DNA of 64,000 nucleotides from an uncultured virus (IMG/VR IMGVR_UViG_3300044591_001667) (lineage: Duplodnaviria; Heunggongvirae; Uroviricota; Caudoviricetes), in IMG/VR virus record IMGVR_UViG_3300044591_001667; one strand, 5' to 3'. Position 1 is the first letter of the stretch, and each line of letters begins with the position of its first letter. The notes beneath the pieces are model-generated. The model made no database searches. It saw only the letters and a program-made list of their open reading frames with translations, and was not told where the DNA came from. Shown one piece after another: positions 1 to 61,442 of the stretch. The translations under genes and the position numbers were made by a program.

Positions 1-127
1 GCCTGAACCAGAACCTGAAACACCTGTGGAACCAGAACCTGAACCAGAGACTCCTGTTGAGCCTGAACCAGAACCTGAAACACCTGTGGAACCAGAACCT
101 GAACCAGAGACTCCTGTTGAGCCTGAA
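1..127 (+). repeat. Tandem 60-bp repeat (two related 30-bp subunits) encoding PEPEPETPVE
   Basis: nt 1-60 and 61-120 are identical; a partial third copy follows. Confidence 0.95.
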
Positions 128-676
128 ACAGAACCAACTCCAGAAACAATTATAGAAGATGCTTTGTCTGATGGTGTTTTGACACAAGAAGAAAAAGCAG
201 TAGTTGTTGAAGCGATTTTGGAGAATCTAGCTCCAGGTGAAGCTGTAACTTCAGAACAACTTCAAGAAGCTGGCGTTACCTACGAAGACCTTCCACCAGA
301 AACTCCTGTTGAAACTAGAACTGACGAGGATGGAAATCCAGTTATCATAACAGCCGAGGTTGCTGCTGCTTTAGTTTTGTTGGAGAACCCTGCTGAACTC
401 TTGGGCGAAATTTTTTCTGACCCAGGACAAGTGCTTCTAGCTCTTGGAAGTATTGGTGCAGATATGTCAGAAGAAGAACGTGAAGAAGCAGAGAAGATGG
501 TTGTAGCAACTGTTGTTGCTGCTGGCGCTGCAATTCAAGCAGCAGCTGGTGCAGCAGGTGCCGCTGGGTCATCTTCTGGTGGAAGTGGCGGCGGCAGTGG
601 CGGCGGTGGGGCAAGCGGAAAAATGGATGGAACTCGCAGAAGAACTACTAGTGGAAGAGTTAGGAAGGTGAAATAA
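1..676 (+). CDS. 5'-truncated Pro/Glu-repeat membrane-anchored protein
   Basis: Frame is open from nt 2. It reads (PEPEPETPVE)n, an acidic domain, hydrophobic MVVATVVAAGAAIQAAAG, a Gly/Ser linker and a basic tail RRRTTSGRVRKVK. Confidence 0.75.
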   Translation, partial: PEPEPETPVEPEPEPETPVEPEPEPETPVEPEPEPETPVEPETEPTPETIIEDALSDGVLTQEEKAVVVEAILENLAPGEAVTSEQLQEAGVTYEDLPPETPVETRTDEDGNPVIITAEVAAALVLLENPAELLGEIFSDPGQVLLALGSIGADMSEEEREEAEKMVVATVVAAGAAIQAAAGAAGAAGSSSGGSGGGSGGGGASGKMDGTRRRTTSGRVRKVK

Positions 677-856
677 ATGAAAAACTTCTTGAGAGATGTG
701 CTAGACCAGCTTTGGACATTGCTAGGCATGTTTGTTGCTTGGATTGTTTTAGACGGTTCAGCTAAGACTATAGTCGGCTATGCCATTATCTGGGCTACAG
801 CCGTATGGGTTATTACATACGGATTAAGAAATCCTAAAGAAGAAGACGAGGAGTAA
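677..856 (+). CDS. 59-aa two-TM small membrane protein (not in ORF track)
   Basis: ATG directly follows the upstream TAA, with AGGAAGG upstream. Translation: MKNFLRDVLDQLWTLLGMFVAWIVLDGSAKTIVGYAIIWATAVWVITYGLRNPKEEDEE. Confidence 0.8.
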   Translation: MKNFLRDVLDQLWTLLGMFVAWIVLDGSAKTIVGYAIIWATAVWVITYGLRNPKEEDEE

Positions 857-47459: not shown

Positions 47460-47938
47460 TACGGCTGTGTCCCCTCTGGAGTAGGTTCGTTAGGGACTGC
47501 TTCGCCCGTTTCTGGGTCATGAGTGTGATCCTGTGTCTCATCACCATGCTCGTGAATAAACTCAGCTACTGCTGCATCATAGTCAGCTTCTAGCATTACT
47601 TTTACTCTTTCGTCAAAGTCTTTGTAGTAGATGTAGTTCCACCACAAAACAATTTCATTTTGACACCATTCAACTTCTGACCAACCCTTTACAGGCCAAG
47701 GTTCTGCATGATTAAATTCATTTAATTGGACTAAAGTCATAGTGTCCATTTTTGCATCAAGGTATTTAAGAACATTGTCCATGTGGCTGTAAATAACTTC
47801 TGCAGGGATAGAAGGTAGCTCACTCTCGTTACCCACATTAATTACAGTGTGAGATTCTTCTCCGCTTTCTGCAACAAATTTTTTACAGATGACAGGACGT
47901 TTTTCTGCTTCATAGAAGTTTGGAACGTATTCTATCAT
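47459..47938 (-). CDS. Hypothetical acidic protein following the tail fibre
   Basis: ATGA overlap with the fibre stop; His-rich HEHGDETQDHTHD. Confidence 0.7.
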   Translation of the reverse strand: MIEYVPNFYEAEKRPVICKKFVAESGEESHTVINVGNESELPSIPAEVIYSHMDNVLKYLDAKMDTMTLVQLNEFNHAEPWPVKGWSEVEWCQNEIVLWWNYIYYKDFDERVKVMLEADYDAAVAEFIHEHGDETQDHTHDPETGEAVPNEPTPEGTQP

Positions 47939-49506
47939 TTTGCATCCTTTAGTCGTTGTACTTCTTCTTTGAGGAAGTCTATCTCAGCTTGTTGGGATTT
48001 TAGGAGTTCTATAGCAAGTGTCGAAAGGAGGCCGTAATTTAGAGCAATTGGCTCTTGTTTTTCATTATATGCAACTATCTCTTCAATGCCTGTTTCAAGA
48101 ACTTCTTCAGCAATATATCCGTACATCCACTCTCGATTAAGAGCTTGTTGGTCTTGATTAACCAAATCTTTGTATTTATATCTTTTTAGCTTAAGATTTA
48201 AAATTTTCTTAGGGTCTACTTCATAATCTGTAATTTCTTTTTTGAAGAGCTTACTTGAAGTAGATACTCCACCAACAATACCTGACACCTGAACACCGTG
48301 AAGGTGGCTACCGTCTCTACCTAAGTGGCTGTGACCTGAAAGTGGACCAGAAGCCGTTGTAATACTACCGCCTGTAAATGAGTGGCTGTGAGCTGGAACT
48401 GTTCCACCGCTGTGGGTGTGGTTTCCAAGAGCAACTTGGTTAGAGCCAGTACCAGTTGGAATACGAGCTATGTTGAGAGTACCACTATCAATTTTTGCTG
48501 CAGAAATTTGCGGAATTCTTGCATCGGAAAAAATACCATTTGTAATTTTTGCAGTTGATAGGTCTGGAATTCTTGCAGTAGAAAAAGCACCAGTAGTAAT
48601 TTTACCTGCATCTAAATTTGGAATTCTTGCGGCATCAAAAGTTCCAGAAGTAATTTTACTTGCAGATATGTCTGCAGCTACTCTAATGTTAGTGACTGCT
48701 CCTACTGCCAACTTATCACTTGTAATTTGTCCATTAACAATTTGCTCAGTAAGAATAGAACTATCTTGAATATGTAGATTTCCTTGAATAGTTTTTGCAG
48801 CAATATCTACGCCTTGAATTGTACTTGGAAATATTTTTGCGCTTGTTATTGCATTATCTTGGATATTTTCTGTACCAACTGCGTTAGCAGCAAGCTCTGA
48901 ATTTCCTACAGCATCTAAGGCAATCTCAGAGCTGCCTACAACCTCGGCACCTATCTCTGAAGAACCAACAGCGTCAGCTGCGATTTCCGATGAGTTGACA
49001 GCATCTGAAGCAATCTCGCTGTTTCCTACAGAGTCAGTCTGAAGGTTTTCTGAAGCAGCGGCGTCTACGCCTAATTCAGAAGCACCAACTGAATCCTGTG
49101 AAATTTCGGAAGACCCAATAGCGTCGGTAGCTACTTCATCATTTCCAACAGCGTCGGTAAGAATATTTTCTCGGTAAACAGCATCAACTGATAACTCGCT
49201 GGTGCTTACAGAGTCTCCTGCAATTTCCGCAGAACCTACAGCATCTGTTGCAATTTCTGAAGATCCCACAGAATCGACATCAAGCTGCGAACTACTTATA
49301 GCAGAATCAGAAACAAGCTCTCTTGTAATTGACTGAACCATGATTTTGTCTGTGCTGACAACTCTTGGAGCAAGGTTGTTTTCATCAACAGCAAAATTGC
49401 CTAGTCTAGAAGGTGATGGTCTACTCTCTAGATACTTAATTCTGCGCTGAACATCGGAAATAGAGCCAGTGATTGTTCTATTTCTACTTCTTCTTCTACT
49501 CGCCAA
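47935..49506 (-). CDS. Tail fibre with C-terminal peptidase S74 intramolecular chaperone
   Basis: Decapeptide DAVGSSEIAx repeats, 15-aa KITSGTFxxARIP repeats, HxH motifs, and SSKLFKKEI...YGYIAEEV...LNY plus a coiled coil. Confidence 0.85.
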   Translation of the reverse strand: MASRRRSRNRTITGSISDVQRRIKYLESRPSPSRLGNFAVDENNLAPRVVSTDKIMVQSITRELVSDSAISSSQLDVDSVGSSEIATDAVGSAEIAGDSVSTSELSVDAVYRENILTDAVGNDEVATDAIGSSEISQDSVGASELGVDAAASENLQTDSVGNSEIASDAVNSSEIAADAVGSSEIGAEVVGSSEIALDAVGNSELAANAVGTENIQDNAITSAKIFPSTIQGVDIAAKTIQGNLHIQDSSILTEQIVNGQITSDKLAVGAVTNIRVAADISASKITSGTFDAARIPNLDAGKITTGAFSTARIPDLSTAKITNGIFSDARIPQISAAKIDSGTLNIARIPTGTGSNQVALGNHTHSGGTVPAHSHSFTGGSITTASGPLSGHSHLGRDGSHLHGVQVSGIVGGVSTSSKLFKKEITDYEVDPKKILNLKLKRYKYKDLVNQDQQALNREWMYGYIAEEVLETGIEEIVAYNEKQEPIALNYGLLSTLAIELLKSQQAEIDFLKEEVQRLKDAK

Positions 49507-51511
49507 TTGTTTTTATCTTTCTCTTTTTGTCAACTTTCCAGTCGGGAACTAAGACTAAATCTACCGTTTCAGGGAATGTAGGACTGTCTGGGACAGACAC
49601 TTTATAGGACTCGATTTTTCTAATAATTAAATCGTCACGGGGTTCTTGATCATTACCAAGTCTTTGTCGTATGAACTCATCATCAATAATAATTGAGCAC
49701 CAATTACCTGGGTTGTAAGAACCAATAAGTGGGGATAGAGAGCCATTGACTTGAATGTTGTAGGTGCCTATTGGAGGCAGGGATTCGTAAAGATAATCCT
49801 GAGCGTACTCAAAGAGAGCATTTTCATCTTCAACTTCGTCTATCTGTTCTACTTGGTCTAAAAGAGGCCAACTTCTACCCTCTGTATTAGAAAGGTAGCC
49901 GCGGACAGCTGCTCCAGCATATGGCTGACTAGCGTCATCGTTCATATCTTCTATACGACCCACCACAAAGAATCGAGTAGCGGACTCTTCTGCAGATTCT
50001 TCAACAGTAAATGTAAGAATATTTCCTGGATACTCAAAAACTAATTTATCAGCGCCAACTTCTTCTGCGGTGTAGTAATCACCATTAGCTGGCTCAAATT
50101 CAATGTCTGCAGAGAAAACTTCAAACTTTCTTGTAAAGCTGACAGTGTCGTAGTCGTAGTCGCAATCGATGCGGTACTCAAAAGCGCCTTCTACAGAGTT
50201 TGAATAATCTTCTAAAATTTCTCCAACTGTTTTATTTTGATACCCTCTAAAAGTAAGAGTATCTCTGTAGTAGCCACTTTTAATTGAACTATCAAGAGCA
50301 ATACCAATGTCAGAATTTGCAAGATAACTTCCAAAGTCACCATAACTTACTTTGGCACCCATTGTCACTGTACCGCCAGACACTGGCCTAAAATCTGTCA
50401 ATACGGCACCAGTTACGTATCTAATTTTATTAGTTGCTGGGACACTACTGATAACTTGACGACCGTCATAAGTAGTATCTAGAACCCCTGCAAAAAACGA
50501 ATCAACGCCTTTTACAACAACAGAAGAACCAACAATCGAGTTATGTGTTCTATCTAATGTAAGCTCTGCTACACCAACATTGTCCATTGATCTAGACACT
50601 ACGTTATAAGTTTGAAGTCCTCCAACGGCACTAGCTGGAACATCTGGACCGTTCAATACATATCTAAAAGTTGTTGGAGTGGGAACTTCAGTTACAAAGT
50701 GAGTGCCCTCTAAATTTGAACCAATCTCGTATAAAGATACTTCTTGTCCAACAATAATGTCGTGCTCTTTTTCTGTAGTAATAGTCACTACGTTTGCAGA
50801 GCGCTCTTTTTTAACTACTGGAACATCATAATCTTTGGCAGGTCTAATAGCTTCATTAGCAAAATTAATTCCTCCCAAATCTGTGTTAATTCTATAGACC
50901 AAATCACGAGCAACATCAAAAGTATCTGCTAATAATCTACAAGCACCAGAAGTGCTAGTTCCTGAGGTGTTAGCTGAAGTGCTCAGATATTGAAATTGAT
51001 TTGAAGCAGTGATATTTGTAATCTCATGAGTCCCATTTACTGCAGGGTTAACTGTGCTAATGCTTATATTTTGACCTTTTGCAAACCCGTGAGGCCCATC
51101 TGTAGTTATTGTTCCTACACCATTAGAGACAGAATAGTTAGTAACTCCAATAAACTCAGAGCCGTAAACAATAGTTTGCCAAATATTTCTATGGTAGAGA
51201 TAGCTGATAAATTCGGCTCCATCTACTGTTAATTCTTGACTCCGAACATCATAGCTGCGAGACCAAATAATTCCACCCCAGACGCAGACGCCGTTGCGCA
51301 TAATGTAGATACCAGTTCTGCCCGGCATTGTTGCTTCATATAAATCTAAGGCTTTTGTAGTTTCAATAAATGGGATAGTCCCAGAAAAAGCACCAGCTTT
51401 TCTATTTACTCTCTCATAAGAAACATTCTTAAAAGGAACCTCGGAAATAACAGTATTAGTCAATAAATCTGTTAAGTAGTATCGGTATTCGACATTAGTC
51501 TGTAGTGTCAC
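49496..51511 (-). CDS. Minor tail (tail-tip/Tal-position) protein with three inserted beta modules
   Basis: YRYYLTDLLT, AGAFSGTIP, VWGGIIW, FEYPGNI, WPLLD; follows Dit. GTG 51511 with AAAGGA RBS is the preferred start. Confidence 0.8.
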   Translation of the reverse strand: MTLQTNVEYRYYLTDLLTNTVISEVPFKNVSYERVNRKAGAFSGTIPFIETTKALDLYEATMPGRTGIYIMRNGVCVWGGIIWSRSYDVRSQELTVDGAEFISYLYHRNIWQTIVYGSEFIGVTNYSVSNGVGTITTDGPHGFAKGQNISISTVNPAVNGTHEITNITASNQFQYLSTSANTSGTSTSGACRLLADTFDVARDLVYRINTDLGGINFANEAIRPAKDYDVPVVKKERSANVVTITTEKEHDIIVGQEVSLYEIGSNLEGTHFVTEVPTPTTFRYVLNGPDVPASAVGGLQTYNVVSRSMDNVGVAELTLDRTHNSIVGSSVVVKGVDSFFAGVLDTTYDGRQVISSVPATNKIRYVTGAVLTDFRPVSGGTVTMGAKVSYGDFGSYLANSDIGIALDSSIKSGYYRDTLTFRGYQNKTVGEILEDYSNSVEGAFEYRIDCDYDYDTVSFTRKFEVFSADIEFEPANGDYYTAEEVGADKLVFEYPGNILTFTVEESAEESATRFFVVGRIEDMNDDASQPYAGAAVRGYLSNTEGRSWPLLDQVEQIDEVEDENALFEYAQDYLYESLPPIGTYNIQVNGSLSPLIGSYNPGNWCSIIIDDEFIRQRLGNDQEPRDDLIIRKIESYKVSVPDSPTFPETVDLVLVPDWKVDKKRKIKTIGE

Positions 51512-51525
51512 TAGAGGAGTCCTTT

Positions 51526-53853
51526 TTATCCAAGCCAACCAGATCGATAGTAGATGCGAAGACTAGCATCTCCATTTGTATCTCCACCGTCAATAAACTC
51601 AATTTCGTTATTTCCTGGAGCTAGTTCAATAAAATCTGCTAGAACGTCAATTCTTCCCCGAGCGCCATCAACTACACCATTAAAAGCAACTTCTCGATTT
51701 TTTGTGTCAATTTCTAATACGTCTGCACTAAGAGTTGCAGTTGCATTAGCAATACCTGGAGTAAATATAACGTCATTCTTTTTAATCGCTTTTCCGCTTG
51801 CTAAAGTTTTTGGAATAGTGTCAGAAACGCTGGCAACTCCATTTGCACCAGAGAATGGGAGGCTTCCAGAAACTGTAGCAATTCCACTTGGGGTCACTGG
51901 TACAGATGTTGCAATACCGAGTAACTCGATAAATACGGTTGTCACCTCTGTGTTTGGAATATCGGTTCCAGAAATAACCATTGTAAAAGAGTTAGCAGTT
52001 AAAACAGATGCAACAGACCTGACTCCACCACCAAAGGGGGTAGTCCCAGTAAAGGTAAGCTCTGCTCCTGTGTAAAGCCCGTGGGAACTAACTGTTGTTA
52101 TGGTGACAATATTTCCAGTTCGTAGATAAGACTTAACTTTTCTTGAGGAAGGCTCAACAAAACCAGCGGTCACAGATGTCGGAATTAAGTTAGCAACACT
52201 CTTTGTGTAGGCAAAGGTTGTTGTACTAGGCACTGCGGTGATTGTAAATGTTCCGTCATAGCTAGGGTCTACGCCAGAAATTACTACTTTCTCGCCAACA
52301 ACGTAGTTGTGAGGAGTGCTAGTCGTAAGAACTACAGTGTTTGAAGAAGCTGATCTAATCGAAATACTTCTTTCATTAGAAGAGGCTCTCTTAAATTTAA
52401 AGCTTGTTGAGGTAGGAATGTCTGTGATTGTGTACGTTCCATTAAAGTATGCGTCAACATTTGTAATAGAAACAGGCTCACCAATAATAAACCCATGAGC
52501 AGCACTAGTGACAAGAGTTGCTACGTTTAGGTTTAATTCTTTACTAATTATTTCTTTAGCGTTTGTACGAGTTGCAGCATAGCTAAAAGTATTAGAAGTT
52601 GTTGCCGTAATTGTGTAAGAACCATCAAATGGTATGCCAGTATTTGAAACAGTGACAGTATCACCAATAATAAATTGATGCTCATCTGCGGTAGTTAAAG
52701 TTGCAATATTAGAGACAACTACCTTGCCTGTAACAGCTTTAGGCGGAACACGGGTTTTGGCATATGTAAATGTAGTTGCGTTTGGGACTCCTGTGATTGT
52801 GTATGTTCCATCAAAAAGACTGTCAACTCCAGTAACAGTTATCGAATCATTTGTACCAAAACCATGCGCGGCTGCTGTTTCAAGTCTTGCAACACTACTC
52901 TGTAAAGACTTTGTTACAACATCATTGATAACGGCTGATTCTGTTTCAAAAGTAAAAGTGGTGTCTGTAGGAGTAGAAGTAATCAATTGCTGACCATCAA
53001 ATGGGAATCCAACGTTTGAGATGTAGATTTCATCTCCTACACTAAAATCATGCTTTGCTGTTGTTGTCATTGTTGCCACATCTACAAGTTTTGTAGTGTC
53101 AAAAACAAGCTGCTTATTTACAATGGCTCGAACAATACTTCCCTTTAGAGATTGCGTAATCAACATAAGTTTGTCTGTAGTTCTATTGTAAATAGAAGCA
53201 GGAGAAATAAGAGGTCCTGTAATTTCTAAAATACATGGGACAGGGTAGTTTCCAATGTTCTGAACAGCACCAACACCGTTATAACCCGCCTCGTTATTTT
53301 TTACAGGAACTTCACCTACGTTGTAACCATCTGGGCTTGCATCGTTCCAAGAGTATTTAATTGGGTCTGCGGCACGAAGTCCAATCTCAAACTCTGTTCT
53401 TCCACGAGCATTTCTTGTGTCAATCTCTACAGAACCACTTAAGCGAACAAAAGATGCTCGAATTGGGTCGTTACCAGTTTTAAGCCATGCTCCTTTGTAA
53501 ACCAAGTCGCAAGCGGCTACAAGCCTATCTCGGGCTGATTCTACTTGGGAAGGATTTTGAACTAGGTATACGCCTTTTATTACAAGATCTCTAGCGTTAT
53601 ATCTGCCTTGTACATCATAAGAACCGTCTCCAAAACCACGAGGGATATCAGGCATTTCAGCAGATGGCATAGTCCACCAGCCTTCAATGTCGGTAATTAC
53701 CCAAACAACACCTTCGTCATCAATCGTATTAAAAATAAAGTCTCCAAGAATAATGTTTGCTTGAAGTTTTAATTTTTCAATGTAGTCAGGTTGTAATGGG
53801 GTTAATCCTCTATCTACATAAAAGTTTTCTTGTCCTTGGTTATAAGCAGCCAT
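51526..53853 (-). CDS. Distal tail (Dit-like) protein with a six-module insertion
   Basis: Directly after the tape measure; WVITDIEGW, RGFGDG, LRAADPIKY, NIGNYPV, LAPGNNEI and YRSGW. Confidence 0.85.
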   Translation of the reverse strand: MAAYNQGQENFYVDRGLTPLQPDYIEKLKLQANIILGDFIFNTIDDEGVVWVITDIEGWWTMPSAEMPDIPRGFGDGSYDVQGRYNARDLVIKGVYLVQNPSQVESARDRLVAACDLVYKGAWLKTGNDPIRASFVRLSGSVEIDTRNARGRTEFEIGLRAADPIKYSWNDASPDGYNVGEVPVKNNEAGYNGVGAVQNIGNYPVPCILEITGPLISPASIYNRTTDKLMLITQSLKGSIVRAIVNKQLVFDTTKLVDVATMTTTAKHDFSVGDEIYISNVGFPFDGQQLITSTPTDTTFTFETESAVINDVVTKSLQSSVARLETAAAHGFGTNDSITVTGVDSLFDGTYTITGVPNATTFTYAKTRVPPKAVTGKVVVSNIATLTTADEHQFIIGDTVTVSNTGIPFDGSYTITATTSNTFSYAATRTNAKEIISKELNLNVATLVTSAAHGFIIGEPVSITNVDAYFNGTYTITDIPTSTSFKFKRASSNERSISIRSASSNTVVLTTSTPHNYVVGEKVVISGVDPSYDGTFTITAVPSTTTFAYTKSVANLIPTSVTAGFVEPSSRKVKSYLRTGNIVTITTVSSHGLYTGAELTFTGTTPFGGGVRSVASVLTANSFTMVISGTDIPNTEVTTVFIELLGIATSVPVTPSGIATVSGSLPFSGANGVASVSDTIPKTLASGKAIKKNDVIFTPGIANATATLSADVLEIDTKNREVAFNGVVDGARGRIDVLADFIELAPGNNEIEFIDGGDTNGDASLRIYYRSGWLG

Positions 53854-53854
53854 T

Positions 53855-56800
53855 TTATGCAGCTCCTCTTCTCATTTGATAAGCAAGCTGACGTGAAACA
53901 AGAGATGCAAGCTCACGTTCATCCATACCAGCAGACGGGTAAACATTCACAGTTACGCCCTTACCACTGCCGCCGCTTAAGTAGTCAATCATTGCTTTAT
54001 CACGCTTTGATAGACCGTTTGGATCTAGTGGTTCTACACGTTCTGGTTTACCAGCTTCTGCAATCTGAGCAATTGTGCCTCCTGCAGATGGCATAACAAC
54101 TCCACCTAGAGCAAGTCTTGGAATTCTAAAATCGAGTTTAGGTACTTGTTTACCTAAGAATGTTCCGCCACCAAGAGTAAATCCCTTTCCAGCAGCATTG
54201 GTGTTCCACCAGTTTTTTGCCTCTTCAAACCCTGACTTAACACCGTCAAACAAGAATCCAAAAATATTACCTGCTCCATCTTTAAATTTCTTTGGGAGAG
54301 TCTTTAAGAAAGCAGGAATGTCTTTTGTGAAGAAATCAGTGACAGCTGTCCAAGCAGTCTTCACTCCACCACTTAGGAAGTCCCAAGCGGCTTTTGCTCC
54401 ATCTGCAAATTTCTTCGGGATTCCTGAAATAAATGGTGCAATTGTTTTTGTGAAGTAGTCACTAATAGCTGTAAATGCCTTACTTAGAAGGTCGGTAATC
54501 CAGCTCCAGAAATTGGATACATTAGTGATAAATCTCTTTGGGGTGTCGATTAAATAAGGCAAAAGTGTCTTACTGAACCAGTCTCCAATCTTTGTGAAGA
54601 GACCTCCTAGTAAGTCAAAAATCCATAGCCAGAATCCAGATACCAGTTTGATATAAGTTGCAGGAATAGATATCAAGAATGGAACAAGAGTGTTGGTAAA
54701 CCAACTACCAATTTTTGTAAAGAGAGTTCCTAGTAAGTCAAAAATCCACAGCCAGAAGCCAGCTACAAGTTTGATGTACTTTCCAGGAAGACTGACTAAG
54801 AATGGAACCAAAGTTTCTGTAAACCATGAGGAAACTTTTGTAAATAGCTCGCTAAACCAAGTACCTATTTTGCTACCAAAATCTTTAAAGAATCCAAGAA
54901 TTTTTGGACCAAACTCTTTAAAGAAGCCAATAATCTTGTCCCAGTTTTCGATGATAAGCGGAACTAAAAGAAGAAGAAGTCCAACAGGACCACCAATAAG
55001 AGATAAAGCTCTTCCAGCAAATCGTGCAGCTACTCCAACACCACGCAATGCGCCAGCCTTAAGTTTTGCAGCGATGCTTGTTTTATCCATAGCCATAGCC
55101 GTTGAGGTTGCTCTAATACCCAAACTATAGAGTCTTCCTCCCAAAGTTTTAACAGCCATGACGTTTCCAGCAACAGCCTTACCAAAGAATGAGACAGCTT
55201 TAAATGCAAGTCGGAATGCTCTAATAAAGGCAAATGCACCAGCAGCATAGGCAAGAATCGTTGAGACGCCTGGAAGCTTGAGGAAGTTATTAAAGACCGT
55301 AAAGATTCCGTTTAAGGTGTCGAAGAAAATCTTTATAGCGCCGCTCTCGGTGAGTAGTGACACAAACTCTGCAAAAGAAACTACTAACTCACCCAAGGAA
55401 GGCAAACTCTTTGCTAGTTCAGTTCCAAGACCATTAAAAATCTCTACTGCTTCAATTAATTTGTCAACAAAAACACCAAACTCAGGTGTAGCTCCAACTT
55501 GTAGAAGACCTTCACCAATCTTTCCAACAAGGGTAAGAATCTTTGTGAAGTTAGTTGTTAGCCCGTTGAGGAAGGTTGTAAGACCTTCATTATTTTCTCC
55601 ACCCTTAGTAAAGTTTTTAAACTTGGTGAAGACATCATCAAAATACTTAATGAATATGTCTGCAGAACCACCAGGAGCAATAACATTGTCAATAATGTCG
55701 CCTAAAGCACTAAAGGCTTTTTTGAAGGCTCCTCCAAGACCACTTGTAACTCTTTCAATATCATCAAAGAAATCCTTAAGCTCGCCTGTGGCTTGCTTGG
55801 CTTTCATAGTCTTTTCGAATGTTTCACCAAGGGTTGCAACCCACTCGCCGAACTTAGTGATTAGCGGCCCAGCGGCAGCTAGGATGGCAAGCAGTCCTCC
55901 ATAGAAACCGTTAGCTGCTTTTCCTAAATTCAAAAGAAGAGTGTCATTAGTCTTCCATATAGATTCAAGATTTTCTAGGTTTTTAGCTTCAGTAATTGCA
56001 TTAGAGAACCCAATTGCAATATCTCCAAGAATTCCACCAGTGGTACGAAGTAAAGGTTCAAGCTTTGGGAAAAGATTATCTACAAGGTTTTGAATTGCAG
56101 TTTCTAGCTTTGGAAAAAGAAGTTCACCAGCAGCATCTCTAAGCTTTTTAAACTCATCTTGGATACTAATTAAGTATTTAACAAACTTCTGAGCCTCAGG
56201 GGATAGGCCAGCAAGAGCATCAGCAAACGCATCTGCTCCAGGACCCTTTTGAGCATCAGCCAAATCTTGCTCTGCATCTGCAACATCTCGAACAGCTAAT
56301 GCAATTTGACGATTGATGTCGCGAATTGCTTTGCTCTTAGTTGGATCGTCAGTTGCCTCTCTTGCAGCATTTGCTGCATCCTTTTCAGCATCTGTGACTG
56401 CTTTTAAAGCCTTTGCTTTATCTATTGCAGCATCAACCAAAGACTCCTGAGCATTACGCTGAGCAGTAATAGCATCTTTAACAGCCTGAGAGCCTTCAAC
56501 TCCAGCTGCAGTTGCAGCTTTTTCTTCCTTCTTGAGGTCCTTGTTGCGGTCAATTGCTTTACGCAAGTTAAGGTCAGCCTCGGCAAACGCAAGCTCTGCT
56601 TCTTGGCGAGCACGGGAGTTTGGCGGAAGGTCTTGAACACGCTGAAGCGCATCACGAGCCTTAATAAATTCAAGACGGGCCCTCTTCTCAGAGATAGCAG
56701 CGCCTTCTGTTTCAAATCTAAGTTGCTGTAGCTTTTCTAAAGCATCTTCACGAGCCTTAGTTAACTGCTCTGTTGTTCTTTTAGCTGCTTCTTGAGCATC

Positions 56801-57451
56801 TCTATAGGTGCGCTCAGAACGTGAAGCAGAAATTTTTGCATCAGCAAGATTTTCTTCTGCTTCCACTTGCCGCTGAGTTAGTTGAGCAAGAAGTTCTGGC
56901 TTTGCTTCTGTTTGTAGGCGCTCAAGTTTTAATGAGGCATCAGCTACTCTACGTTTGGCTGCTGCAATAGCTTTCTCATTGCTAGCAGATGCCTTTTGAG
57001 TCTTTAGTCCAGCAGCTAGCGCTTGCGAAACCCCAGAGAAGGCAAGTTTTGCAACAATAGCAGCCTGAGCCACAGCACTAAGACTTCCAGCTAATACGAC
57101 TAAACCACCAGTACCCACTGCAGCAGCAGTAGCACCAAGTGTAAGAAGTCCTCCACCAAGAGCACCAACGGCTCCAGCAAGTCCAGTAAATGCTGGAGCT
57201 AAGAAATAGCCTGTAGTAATTAATTTATCTAATCTGAGACGGGCTTCTTCAGCTTCTTTTCTAAATTTAGAGCCAAAAAGTCCGTTGCGCTCTGACCCAC
57301 CGCTGGCTAATCCTTTTGAAAAGGAATCAGAAATATTACGACCAGCATCTTCACCAATACCATCTAAGCCTTCAAAGGCTCTTTGGATATCAGGGCGGAC
57401 GCGGTTGGTAATAGCACGGACAATGACGTGCGCTTCACCTACTACTGCCAT
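53855..57451 (-). CDS. Tape measure protein
   Basis: MAVVGEAHVIVRA start, long Ala/Leu helical and coiled-coil regions, periodic W/F repeats, IPRLALGG...AEAGKPE C-terminus; downstream of the tail chaperones. Confidence 0.93.
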   Translation of the reverse strand: MAVVGEAHVIVRAITNRVRPDIQRAFEGLDGIGEDAGRNISDSFSKGLASGGSERNGLFGSKFRKEAEEARLRLDKLITTGYFLAPAFTGLAGAVGALGGGLLTLGATAAAVGTGGLVVLAGSLSAVAQAAIVAKLAFSGVSQALAAGLKTQKASASNEKAIAAAKRRVADASLKLERLQTEAKPELLAQLTQRQVEAEENLADAKISASRSERTYRDAQEAAKRTTEQLTKAREDALEKLQQLRFETEGAAISEKRARLEFIKARDALQRVQDLPPNSRARQEAELAFAEADLNLRKAIDRNKDLKKEEKAATAAGVEGSQAVKDAITAQRNAQESLVDAAIDKAKALKAVTDAEKDAANAAREATDDPTKSKAIRDINRQIALAVRDVADAEQDLADAQKGPGADAFADALAGLSPEAQKFVKYLISIQDEFKKLRDAAGELLFPKLETAIQNLVDNLFPKLEPLLRTTGGILGDIAIGFSNAITEAKNLENLESIWKTNDTLLLNLGKAANGFYGGLLAILAAAGPLITKFGEWVATLGETFEKTMKAKQATGELKDFFDDIERVTSGLGGAFKKAFSALGDIIDNVIAPGGSADIFIKYFDDVFTKFKNFTKGGENNEGLTTFLNGLTTNFTKILTLVGKIGEGLLQVGATPEFGVFVDKLIEAVEIFNGLGTELAKSLPSLGELVVSFAEFVSLLTESGAIKIFFDTLNGIFTVFNNFLKLPGVSTILAYAAGAFAFIRAFRLAFKAVSFFGKAVAGNVMAVKTLGGRLYSLGIRATSTAMAMDKTSIAAKLKAGALRGVGVAARFAGRALSLIGGPVGLLLLLVPLIIENWDKIIGFFKEFGPKILGFFKDFGSKIGTWFSELFTKVSSWFTETLVPFLVSLPGKYIKLVAGFWLWIFDLLGTLFTKIGSWFTNTLVPFLISIPATYIKLVSGFWLWIFDLLGGLFTKIGDWFSKTLLPYLIDTPKRFITNVSNFWSWITDLLSKAFTAISDYFTKTIAPFISGIPKKFADGAKAAWDFLSGGVKTAWTAVTDFFTKDIPAFLKTLPKKFKDGAGNIFGFLFDGVKSGFEEAKNWWNTNAAGKGFTLGGGTFLGKQVPKLDFRIPRLALGGVVMPSAGGTIAQIAEAGKPERVEPLDPNGLSKRDKAMIDYLSGGSGKGVTVNVYPSAGMDERELASLVSRQLAYQMRRGAA

Positions 57452-60395: not shown

Positions 60396-61442
60396 CTAGG
60401 CGGATGGATCCTCAGTCGACGCAATGATGAAGTCGATTGGTAGATCTGGGTTGTAGGCATCAGAGCCTGGAACGTTATATCCAGTTTCTGAACCTTGGCT
60501 ATCGAAGTCAGAGACTGCGAGATATCCGCGGTTACGAGTTGCTGAACCAGCTGGGCTTACTGCTGCTGATGGAACATCAGTTGCTGTCTTAGCAAAACGG
60601 AAGGATGTTGGAGTTGGAGCTGCAGTAATTGTGTGAGTTCCGTTGAATGTTGAATCAACGCCCTCGATGGTTACTGACTGACCAACTTCGAATCCGTGTG
60701 CAGAACCTGTTGTAAGGGTTGCAACGTTTGAAGTAAGAGCCTTGTTGGTGACTGTCTTTGTTGACAAGTCGAACCAGCGGTAGAAGCCCTTTAGTCCTTC
60801 TGGAGCCCATGATGCACGAGCGTATGAATATGGACGCTCTGCTGCTACTGGGAACTCCCAGCGGCCATCTAGACCAGCATTGAACTCAGGGTTTCCAAGA
60901 CCGTAACCTTCGAATGTGTTTGCAAGCAAACCATTCTCAATTACGCGGTCGCCGCTCTGACGAAGCTTTGCGTATGGGAATACCCAGTAGAAGTATGGAA
61001 GACCAGTTGCACGCTTTCCATCCTTAACTGCGTAAGACCAAACTTCAATTGCAACGCCATTGCCAGCAGGGTCATCGCCAACGGCTGGTGCGGCCCAACC
61101 GACTGACTTGTTGTCAGGTGATGCATAAGAACCAAAATTCTTGCGGAGAAGTAGACCGCCAGACATTAGAGCTGAAAGCTCTGAGTCTGGTTCGCAAATC
61201 GCGATCTCCATAGTGATGCGCTTTAGTGTGTCTGGGGCCTTGTATGACACGCATACAGTACCGTCAGCAGACTTTTCAACGATTTCGTCACCCTCTTCAT
61301 ATTCAGGGGTGAATGATGCGCGAAGAAACGCCGAGGTGGTGTAAGAGTCACCTGCTCCATTGAGCAAGTTACCAGCGGCGTCCAGTCGAGTGACTCGGAT
61401 CGCCACACCTTGGACGCTAGCCGCGTAGTCCTGTGTAGCCAT
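60396..61442 (-). CDS. Major tail protein with an inserted beta module
   Basis: AIRVTRLD, EEGDEIVEKSADG, CEPD, VAIEVWS and YWVFP (cluster-B-like tail tube motifs). Confidence 0.85.
   Translation of the reverse strand: MATQDYAASVQGVAIRVTRLDAAGNLLNGAGDSYTTSAFLRASFTPEYEEGDEIVEKSADGTVCVSYKAPDTLKRITMEIAICEPDSELSALMSGGLLLRKNFGSYASPDNKSVGWAAPAVGDDPAGNGVAIEVWSYAVKDGKRATGLPYFYWVFPYAKLRQSGDRVIENGLLANTFEGYGLGNPEFNAGLDGRWEFPVAAERPYSYARASWAPEGLKGFYRWFDLSTKTVTNKALTSNVATLTTGSAHGFEVGQSVTIEGVDSTFNGTHTITAAPTPTSFRFAKTATDVPSAAVSPAGSATRNRGYLAVSDFDSQGSETGYNVPGSDAYNPDLPIDFIIASTEDPSA

Follow-up and report, generated by a model that had tools for sequence, protein, structure and literature searches.

How can a phage tail protein carry six copies of one small β-module and, behind them, four short segments that look like the ends of such modules? 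This question is raised by the gene for the distal tail protein (Dit) in a stretch of DNA from an uncultured virus of the class Caudoviricetes, IMG/VR record IMGVR_UViG_3300044591_001667. We call this whole stretch, which is 64,000 nucleotides long, the window. The original prediction, made from the letters of the window, was that each module had been inserted into the previous one, such that the chain runs out and returns, completing each domain in reverse order. Our analysis makes it very probable that a loop of the Dit C-terminal domain bears an arm of 467 amino acids (aa), predicted to consist of six barrels resembling the FCCH domain, of which four are nested in series and closed in the order 4, 3, 2, 1. 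The gene, and the parts of Dit that lie on either side of the arm, are as follows.

51526..53853, minus strand: Dit (distal tail protein) gene, an open reading frame (ORF) of 775 aa.
53131..53853, minus strand: Dit residues 1-241, which comprise the ring domain at the N-terminus and the beginning of the galectin-like C-terminal domain; a Dit-N hidden Markov model (HMM) matches residues 3-240, and tube- or Dit-type folds match 28..162.
51529..51729, minus strand: Dit residues 709-775, the remainder of the C-terminal domain past the insert; PF22768 matches residues 709-773.

The interval noted earlier, 51730-53130, corresponds exactly to Dit residues 242-708. Dit scores 32.4 bits with PF22768, the SPP1_Dit C-domain, which is above the gathering cut-off of 25, and this match is limited to residues 709-773 and to positions 40-97 of the 97 in the profile. 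Since the profile is matched only from position 40 after the insert, the first part of the domain must precede the insert. Dit also matches phrog_5577 (minor tail protein) with an E-value of 2.1e-17. An AlphaFold2 model of Dit, based on an alignment of the 120 listed homologues (A1), has a mean predicted local distance difference test score (pLDDT) of 89.2 and a predicted template modelling score (pTM) of 0.53. We matched its fold with VIA-align, against 48,161 PDB representatives and then against Foldseek's top 1000 chains; what follows comes from the best 50 matches of each search, each entry being given only in its best placement. SPP1 Dit (2x8k_A) aligns over 233 of 242 residues, from 29 to 774 of the model, with Z 17.3 and a root mean square deviation (rmsd) of 3.6. 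Further solved Dits are also matched (9j1k_K, Z 17.2; 8zdo_m, Z 16.8; 6v8i_AC, Z 15.3; 2wzp_P, Z 14.3; 9d93_Ma, Z 14.2). In the predicted model, the Dit fold is intact around the insert, and residues 242-708 interrupt it.

Six modules make up the greater part of the arm. Their conserved histidines, at residues 268, 330, 392, 453, 515 and 591, are spaced by 62, 62, 61, 62 and 76 aa. A core HMM of 46 positions, built from the family and used to locate module cores, matches six times in Dit, once in the major tail protein and three times in Tal. The links from core to core in Dit measure 16, 16, 16, 16 and 30 aa. In the A1 consensus, the 16-aa link has the pattern R.IvNK.L..N, and a strand of this pattern also precedes module 1 and the module in the major tail protein, which identifies the link as the first strand, b0, of the module that follows. 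A whole module is a unit of six strands: b0, of about 10 aa, is followed by strands b1-b4, which form the 46-aa core, and by b5, a closer of 13-15 aa. After module 5, the link strand comes with 14 extra aa (30 versus 16 aa), and this extra stretch is, from its sequence, the closer of module 5. Another way to read the 16-aa tails, namely as the own closers of copies 1-4, is ruled out by the consensus, by the 30-aa link of module 5 and by covariation.

Behind module 6 come four orphan segments (residues 645-662, 663-677, 678-692 and 693-708). Their glycines at 657, 672, 687 and 700/703 are invariant or nearly so, with a period of 15. The orphans are recognised by position, period and predicted strand, and not by sequence similarity alone. 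The units of the arm, with the partner proposed for each orphan, are as follows.

52936..53130, minus strand: barrel 1, strands b0-b4, residues 242-306, without a sixth strand; core HMM 259-303; strands 240-252, 257-264, 275-279, 287-293 and 299-304.
52741..52935, minus strand: barrel 2, strands b0-b4, residues 307-371, without a sixth strand; core HMM 321-366; FCCH matches 306..692/693.
52558..52740, minus strand: barrel 3, strands b0-b4, residues 372-432, without a sixth strand; core HMM 383-427; 1i8d_A match 367..678.
52372..52557, minus strand: barrel 4, strands b0-b4, residues 433-494, without a sixth strand; core HMM 444-489; interface residues 431-441 and 459-466.
52144..52371, minus strand: barrel 5, residues 495-570, contiguous and complete with a closer of its own at 556-568; 30-aa link; fold matches 491..570.
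51922..52143, minus strand: barrel 6, the tip unit, residues 571-644, likewise complete and contiguous; fold matches 569..645-648.
51868..51921, minus strand: orphan strand 1 (residues 645-662), which we propose as the sixth strand of barrel 4; strand 647-660, pLDDT 78-92.
51823..51867, minus strand: orphan strand 2, residues 663-677, predicted sixth strand of barrel 3; strand 665-675; match 367..678; contact 674-402.
51778..51822, minus strand: orphan strand 3, residues 678-692, predicted sixth strand of barrel 2; FCCH matches 306..692/693; contacts at 682-691.
51730..51777, minus strand: orphan strand 4, residues 693-708, predicted sixth strand of barrel 1; strand 695-708; FNR-type matches to 708-712.

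What the original prediction had said of the repeats themselves was borne out. Histidine spacing and the core HMM both recover six copies. Copies 1-4 were said to lack a closer, and in the family consensus their 16-aa tail is indeed the b0 of the next module. Closers in copies 5 and 6 are confirmed by contiguous fold matches and by the 30-aa link after copy 5. The copy in the major tail protein was described as intact with a closing strand, and both its b0 and its closer are present in a further alignment, A2. Finally, four closer-like segments do follow, at residues 645-708, with the 15-residue glycine period and predicted strands.

In the architecture that we propose, the chain would exit the Dit domain and lay down strands b0-b4 of barrels 1, 2, 3 and 4 in turn. 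Barrels 5 and 6 would then fold whole at the tip. The returning chain would give one strand of about 15 aa each to barrels 4, 3, 2 and 1, with each strand running antiparallel to the b0 of its barrel and beside b2, thus closing the barrel, and the chain would finally re-enter the Dit domain. The b4/b5 loop would be the site of every insertion: barrel 2 in barrel 1, 3 in 2, 4 in 3, and 5 and 6 together in 4. It follows from this nesting that the junctions among barrels 1-4, between barrel 1 and the Dit body, and between barrel 4 and the tip pair are crossed by two segments, and that both ends of the arm meet at the host loop.

The fold matches join late strands to early barrels. In the Dit model, 10-residue blocks of the orphan region have a mean pLDDT of 78-94, and strands of 5-14 residues occur at 647-660, 665-675, 680-684 plus 688-691, and 695-708. 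Barrel 2 with orphan 3 matches human UBA6 (7pvn_A; Z 10.1, rmsd 2.2, 75 aligned residues of the 81-residue FCCH, model 306..693), UBA1 (9mc4_A; Z 9.2, model 306..692) and phage FCWL1 (9jlf_E; Z 8.2, model 307..693). Because 75 residues superpose at about 2.2 Å with end residues that are 387 apart, the barrel is closed by a late strand. Barrel 3 with orphan 2 matches 1i8d_A (Z 7.2, 72 aligned, model 367..678), and barrel 1 with orphan 4 matches ten FNR-type FAD-binding barrels (Z 6.8-7.7, 77-86 aligned, from 238-241 to 708-712). Barrels 5 and 6 are matched as contiguous pieces, barrel 5 at 491..570 by 7k5j_C (Z 8.7) and barrel 6 at 569..645-648 by 4hiz_A (Z 9.8, rmsd 2.0, 78 aligned, 22% identity). 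The tip barrel also matches 1v0e_A and 3ju4 (Z 8.9 each) and the isolated FCCH domain 2v31 (Z 8.1, rmsd 2.5, 74 aligned); another FCCH match is 6dc6_A (Z 9.6). At the level of sequence, searches of the PDB gave nothing usable, either with a profile of the whole family (best E 0.084, to the unrelated VP3) or with a profile of the unit (best E 0.18, to the E1 FCCH structures 2lzj/2v31).

A second AlphaFold2 model, of a Dit with two modules (P0240; pLDDT 85.4, pTM 0.75), has its inner barrel at 345..423. Its outer barrel is matched by 4hiz_A over 282..437 (Z 8.8, rmsd 2.4, 82 aligned). The original prediction had expected the closers to pair with copies 4, 3, 2 and 1 in that order. The models place orphans 2-4 with barrels 3, 2 and 1 as expected, and orphan 1 falls to barrel 4 by elimination.

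We then considered where the orphan strands go once they are no longer attached. ESMFold2 was given residues 238-491 (barrels 1-4) and 645-712 (orphans) as two chains, with barrels 5 and 6 omitted and both covalent links cut. The ipSAE score was 0.74 (median of three runs), compared with 0.00 for the best of three controls; the mark for this score is reached by 116 of 157 solved complexes and by 2 of 215 mismatched pairs, counts that are rough here because a custom alignment was used. The runs have at least 94% of contacts in common, and the pLDDT of the partner is at least 86. Among the pairs of lowest error, residues 308-316 (b0 of barrel 2) meet 682-691 in antiparallel register, 339-342 (b2 of barrel 2) meet 688-691, and 402 (b2 of barrel 3) meets 674. 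On the barrel side, each of the four contributes its b0 and b2 to the interface (238-251/274-281, 306-320/336-344, 368-382/398-405 and 431-441/459-466), and on the orphan side residues 646-653, 655-701 and 703-710 take part. The pLDDT of barrels 1-4 falls from 92 to 72-74 once the orphan chain is swapped for an unrelated protein. The orphan strands are thus modelled between b0 and b2 of modules 1-4, a result that tells where the model puts the strands and is not proof of binding.

The docking of unlinked strands in the two-chain test would also suit a different explanation, in which the returning strands close the barrels of neighbouring Dit chains in the hexamer and thereby cross-link the arms. 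Dit is hexameric in solved phages, and sequence does not tell closure within a chain from closure between chains. However, the monomer model closes all barrels in one chain with high confidence, and the reverse order and 15-aa spacing suit a chain that returns along its own arm, whereas arms that radiate from a ring would need to run side by side in order to exchange strands. We regard such exchange as extremely improbable, and take the barrels to be closed by the chain to which they belong.

Covariation in A1 is a weak signal, with an effective number of sequences (Neff) of 47. The top mutual information (MI) pairs tie the 16-aa link to the module that follows it and not to the one before it (K377-F409, R500-D529, L317-K366, K438-D467 and Y576/L577-T635). 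Averaged over unit pairs, corrected MI (MIp) in the two positive controls is greatest between closer 5 and unit 5 and between closer 6 and unit 6; among the orphans, the highest mean joins orphan 1 to unit 4, orphan 3 to unit 2 and orphan 4 to unit 1. In the family with two modules (115 sequences, Neff 57), the mean joins the first closer to the inner unit and the second to the outer one. Conservation along barrels 1-4 runs high-low-high-low and the orphans mirror this in reverse, an agreement that would arise by chance about once in six. For the pairing of barrel 4 with orphan 1, elimination, membership of the interface and the weak covariation make it the likely one. The nested topology and its order are thus what prediction and sequence statistics give, as a property of the predicted models.

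Relatives of Dit provide evidence that is independent of the fold predictors. The family is large, with 1277 proteins at E<=0.001 among 8000 candidates scored, and with 4521 at E<=0.001 in a profile search of 50%-identity representatives. We fetched 384 proteins and annotated them by HMM for Dit-N, Dit-C and module cores. Nine had no Dit-N match, 21 no Dit-C match and 40 no loop module, leaving 314 with loop modules. Of these, 292 passed our filters (a head of 5-30 aa, links of 8-50 aa and a tail of at most 130 aa) and 22 were dropped. The main classes are as follows.

1 module: no short links, n=48; tail mostly 13-21 aa, with six outliers of 87-103 aa.
2 modules: one short link (12-17 aa), n=113; tail 25-32 aa.
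6 modules: four short links, n=100; tail 77-90 aa.
7 modules: five short links, n=24; tail 84-99 aa.

Five of the outliers with one module have a tail of 87 aa, which fits an undetected second core. A fit over the 292 Dits gives a tail of 15.2 x short links + 17.8 aa, with r 0.91. A plain tandem pair would be expected to have about 23 aa in its link and about 13 aa in its tail; a short link together with a tail of at most 20 aa occurs in 0 of the 292. The original prediction had named module and closer counts in homologues as a point of comparison, and the growth of the tail by about 15 aa per short link agrees with it.

Among the fetched proteins we also noticed other arrangements. Many longer Dit-like proteins (the P0139-P0203 class) have one loop module and then arrays of core hits after the Dit C-domain; in these arrays, the hits overlap by about 10 residues and have a period of about 36, and the architecture differs. 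Many Dits with two modules from the same group of phages of about 130 kb (P0306, P0309, P0316 etc.) carry the label CBM_4_9 (PF02018) and are also extended at the N-terminus, by 170-330 aa ahead of the Dit ring domain.

The same data bear on the simplest alternative, which is that the modules are plain beads on a string. Each barrel would then form from its own stretch of about 62 aa, and residues 645-708 would be a return linker or a small sheet. The roughly 16 aa behind each core of modules 1-4 could serve as a last strand, and the orphans are only weakly alike. Two relatives are in keeping with this alternative: P0208, with short links and a tail of 20 aa, and P0156, whose ten modules, joined by links of 14-15 aa, seem to leave no space for ten closers. 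However, the 16-aa link covaries with the next module and is also present before module 1 and before the copy in the tail tube protein, and module 5 has this link plus 14 more residues. Both predictors place the orphans inside barrels 1-4, and over 292 Dits the tail lengthens as short links increase in number. P0156, moreover, is a singleton without close relatives on a contig of 2,921 bases, and may be cut. We therefore find independent beads quite improbable, and serial nesting remains our reading of the arm.

Several observations weigh against serial nesting. The topology was read from the first and last aligned residues of fold matches and from the two-chain contact list, that is, from predicted models only. 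Both predictors were fed one alignment, and the arm being a split copy of a solved FCCH fold, the good score in the two-chain test may come from model memory. No match that joins barrel 4 to orphan 1 is among the 50+50 fold matches listed, and no contact pair is listed for them either; as each entry shows only its best placement, the absent match is not counter-evidence. Identity between orphans is 10-24%. For orphan 2, units 2 and 1 both exceed unit 3 in mean MIp, and measures based on the top 5 or top 10 MI values do not discriminate in either family. The 292 Dits belong to a few families of close relatives and represent a handful of independent architectures. Among the relatives, P0208 (links of 81, 17 and 19 aa and very divergent cores) and P0193 are misfits, and P0156 ends 28 aa past its last core. 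The pTM of 0.53 says nothing firm on the shape or stiffness of the arm. As to what the arm does, fold likeness is the sole ground for proposing that it binds glycans.

How might such an arm have arisen? Relatives carry 0, 1, 2, 4, 6, 7 or 8 modules at the same loop position. In homologues of about 850 aa in A1, a seventh module with its own b0 and closer lies inside the closing segment of module 6, placed after NV.LE.P and before FG.VEM.G, and homologues of about 787 aa have a loop of 10-12 aa at this point. From the alignment, the seventh module is the insertion step that a nesting model needs, caught within the family. P0285, a Dit of 612 aa, joins its four modules by links of 13, 44 and 13 aa and ends the array with a 27-aa tail. 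This looks like one nested pair placed behind another, as if a nested pair could behave as a unit of duplication. We considered whether the four nested barrels of our Dit originated by duplication of a nested pair, which would make module 1 akin to module 3, module 2 to module 4, orphan 4 to orphan 2 and orphan 3 to orphan 1. This origin is unsupported: identities within the protein among modules 1-5 are all 28-37%, with modules 1 and 3 the lowest, and neither orphans 1 and 3 nor orphans 2 and 4 are the closest pairs of closers. The arm probably grew by repeated insertion of a module into one loop of an existing module. The out-and-back chain of the original prediction is thus upheld in the models, while its further claim, that every module was born by insertion, goes beyond the one event that is visible, that of the seventh module.

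The double connection, along with the long antiparallel pairs of b0 and closer, would be expected to stiffen the arm, in keeping with the rigid stalk of the original prediction. Its likely role, by analogy, would be to hold glycan-binding barrels off the baseplate for adhesion to the host envelope. The barrels could instead bind nothing on the host, and the nested arm could be a structural spacer or scaffold, for example for positioning the fibre or shielding the tip. We have identified no binding site, mean pairwise identity in barrels 1 and 3 is fairly high at 61%, and the available sections of PMC13576161 describe FCCH-type barrels of tail tubes only as outward-facing decoration. By contrast, barrel 6 at the tip is the most variable unit (47% mean pairwise identity), and the extra barrel of homologues with seven barrels is also at the tip. 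The closest structural match from a phage is a glycan-binding barrel, related Dits of the phage group have CBM_4_9 domains according to precomputed Pfam labels, and Dit-inserted modules bind host sugars in other phages, as reported in the accessible text of PMC7291167. A purely structural arm is an unlikely, though serious, alternative, and we favour an adhesive one.

We now note the surroundings of the Dit gene. On the minus strand, the gene order is tape measure, Dit, Tal and fibre, with the Dit gene directly after the tape measure gene. Upstream of Dit lie genes for the major capsid protein (phrog_777), a head-tail adaptor and the major tail protein (phrog_792). No tRNA genes were found in the window. 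The neighbouring genes, and the modules that they encode, are as follows.

53855-57451, minus strand: tape-measure-like ORF, 1198 aa, adjoining the Dit gene.
49496-51538, minus strand: Tal-like ORF, 680 aa, with phrog_1885 (minor tail protein) at its N-terminus.
47935-49506, minus strand: fibre gene, whose product ends in a Peptidase_S74 intramolecular chaperone domain (24.1 bits versus a cut-off of 22).
60528..60761, minus strand: complete contiguous module, residues 228-305 of the 348 of the major tail protein; core HMM 240-285; A2 alignment.
50363..51142, minus strand: three contiguous modules in Tal, residues about 133-204, 236-312 and 313-392 of 680; core HMM 143-184, 250-294 and 323-375.

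The C-terminal third of the tape-measure-like protein has several hydrophobic repeats of about 40 aa (FTKIGSWFT..L.PFL..IP..YIKLV.GFWLWIFDLLG-like). The Tal gene starts with TTG and shares 13 bases with the end of the Dit gene. The fibre protein contains a long run of repeats of about 11 aa (S.EIa.DAVG-like).

The source is a siphophage of about 140 kb with relatives among the actinobacterial phages of fresh water. Among deposited phages, Actinomycetia phage DSL-LC01 and large Microbacterium phages come closest. DSL-LC01, a lake phage assembled from a metagenome according to the accessible part of PMC10611076, has 44% identity over 61% of the query, an identical gene order and a Dit gene of 1,158 bases.

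The module is also used elsewhere in the same tail. The major tail protein gene (60396-61442, minus strand, phrog_792) encodes one copy with an acidic tail of about 45 aa behind it, so the tail tube would be studded with the module throughout. In Tal, modules 1 and 2 align with their own closers in A2, and a closer of the third can be read in its sequence. These copies are apparently tandem and not nested.

Some further relatives have similar arrays. Four proteins on bacterial contigs of up to 576 kb (P0267, P0399, P0412 and P0425) have an N-terminal TadE/G-like pilus domain (PF13400), and some are named TadG in their source. They have five modules with links of 13-17 aa, followed by some five strands that read as closer-like. 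This organisation suggests that the same nesting exists outside phages, in TadG-like proteins of bacteria. P0226 (763 aa) has six modules with short links and then about six closer-like strands. In P0394 and P0397 (about 1090 aa), two modules are followed by a stretch of 106 aa with about five closer-like strands, then by four modules with short links and one clear closer. Here the arrangement may be reversed, with strands that precede their barrels.

These cases lead us to propose, tentatively and with rather less than even confidence, that the FCCH-like barrel is a self-nesting block. It would accept new copies of itself in the loop before its last strand and so build arms of any length from one surface loop, with both ends together, and this recursion would have been reused in Dits and in TadG-like proteins. 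If this is true, it would apply to hundreds of Dits from freshwater and soil actinobacterial phages, with 1, 2, 2+2, 4+2 or 4+3 barrels, and to TadG-like pilus proteins with 5-6 modules on short links and about as many closer-like strands. The product would be a stiff, double-stranded arm that is hard to unfold. As an outer barrel cannot close before its inner parts have been made, an arm nested in this way would fold from the tip inward.

Insertion of one domain into another is common when it happens once, rare when it happens twice and very rare when it goes four deep with the same domain and loop. A loop as host site matters here, in that a plain tandem array cannot return the chain. Natural intermediates with 0, 1, 2, 2+2, 6 and 7 barrels in one family would permit the growth of repeats at a loop site to be studied. 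There are also consequences for annotation. Repeat finders and domain callers count six modules without noticing that four of them are incomplete and receive their last strand 300-400 residues further on, which would lead to wrong domain boundaries, and hence wrong constructs, for such tail proteins. The arm would be a new type among the adhesion devices of evolved Dits, in phages of about 130-140 kb that are abundant and mostly uncultured, and a barrel that accepts itself is a possible scaffold for stiff spacers of tunable length. The interest thus lies in protein topology, evolution and annotation practice, and not in a new function.

Searches of open-access literature (subscription journals not covered) brought up no account of FCCH-like barrels nested in this way, whether in Dits or in other tail proteins. 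Several known systems share parts of the architecture. By its position and host domain, the arm-bearing Dit is an evolved Dit. According to the accessible text of PMC7291167, evolved Dits of siphophages that infect Gram-positive bacteria have carbohydrate-binding modules (CBMs) in loops of the galectin-like domain, and these bind host sugars. The Dit described here shares the host protein, a peripheral loop of the C-terminal domain, the gene order of tape measure, Dit and Tal, and a likely role in adhesion. However, known evolved Dits have one or two CBMs, often of the BppA fold, whereas here there are six FCCH-like barrels, four of which are predicted to be serially nested.

As described in the available sections of PMC13576161, FCCH is a six-stranded, closed, antiparallel barrel and also occurs on the phage tail tube proteins gp39 and gp13. 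The Dit barrels resemble the E1 FCCH (PF16190) as six-stranded closed barrels (Z 8-10, rmsd 2.0-2.6, 72-78 residues), and both have the motif HGF..GD.V.F..V.G...NG. Against PF16190, the Dit as a whole reaches 22.1 bits (E 1.6e-4), which is short of the cut-off of 29.5, and the single units reach at best E 0.043, in 2 of 5 units. Relatives that bear the module do pass (P0226, 38.9 bits; P0156, 50.2 bits), and 27 of the 120 listed homologues have a precomputed PF16190 label. The barrels of gp39 and gp13 are similar in being outward-facing decoration on a phage tail protein. Both these and the E1 FCCH differ from the Dit arm in being single contiguous barrels, and serial nesting is not described for them in those sections of PMC13576161.

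Among phage proteins, the tip barrel is best matched by the endosialidase barrel (endoNF/K1F, phi92; PF12195), which is itself inserted in another domain. This β-barrel domain holds a polysialic-acid binding site, according to the accessible part of PMC12632334. The endosialidase barrel is a single, unrepeated insertion, and no sialidase is encoded here. In sequence, PF12195 matches 1 of 5 units, with E 0.012.

In topology, the closest precedent is Si3, an insertion in the trigger loop of cyanobacterial RNA polymerase, as far as its description in the available text of PMC10895346 goes. Each of its domains is a sandwich-barrel hybrid motif (SBHM); SBHM-2 to -5 are assembled from distant parts of the chain, whereas SBHM-1, -6, -7 and -8 are continuous. 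No RNA polymerase chains were among the best 50 matches listed for each fold search. Si3 has a different motif in a different host protein with a different function, and no homology is implied. The connections between sheets vary in Si3, as described there, whereas the Dit arm is predicted to use the same insertion point in each barrel and to return a single strand. Like the predicted Dit arm, Si3 projects from a loop as a series of repeated small β-domains whose two ends lie together; four of the domains are discontinuous, and the far end is made up of continuous ones.

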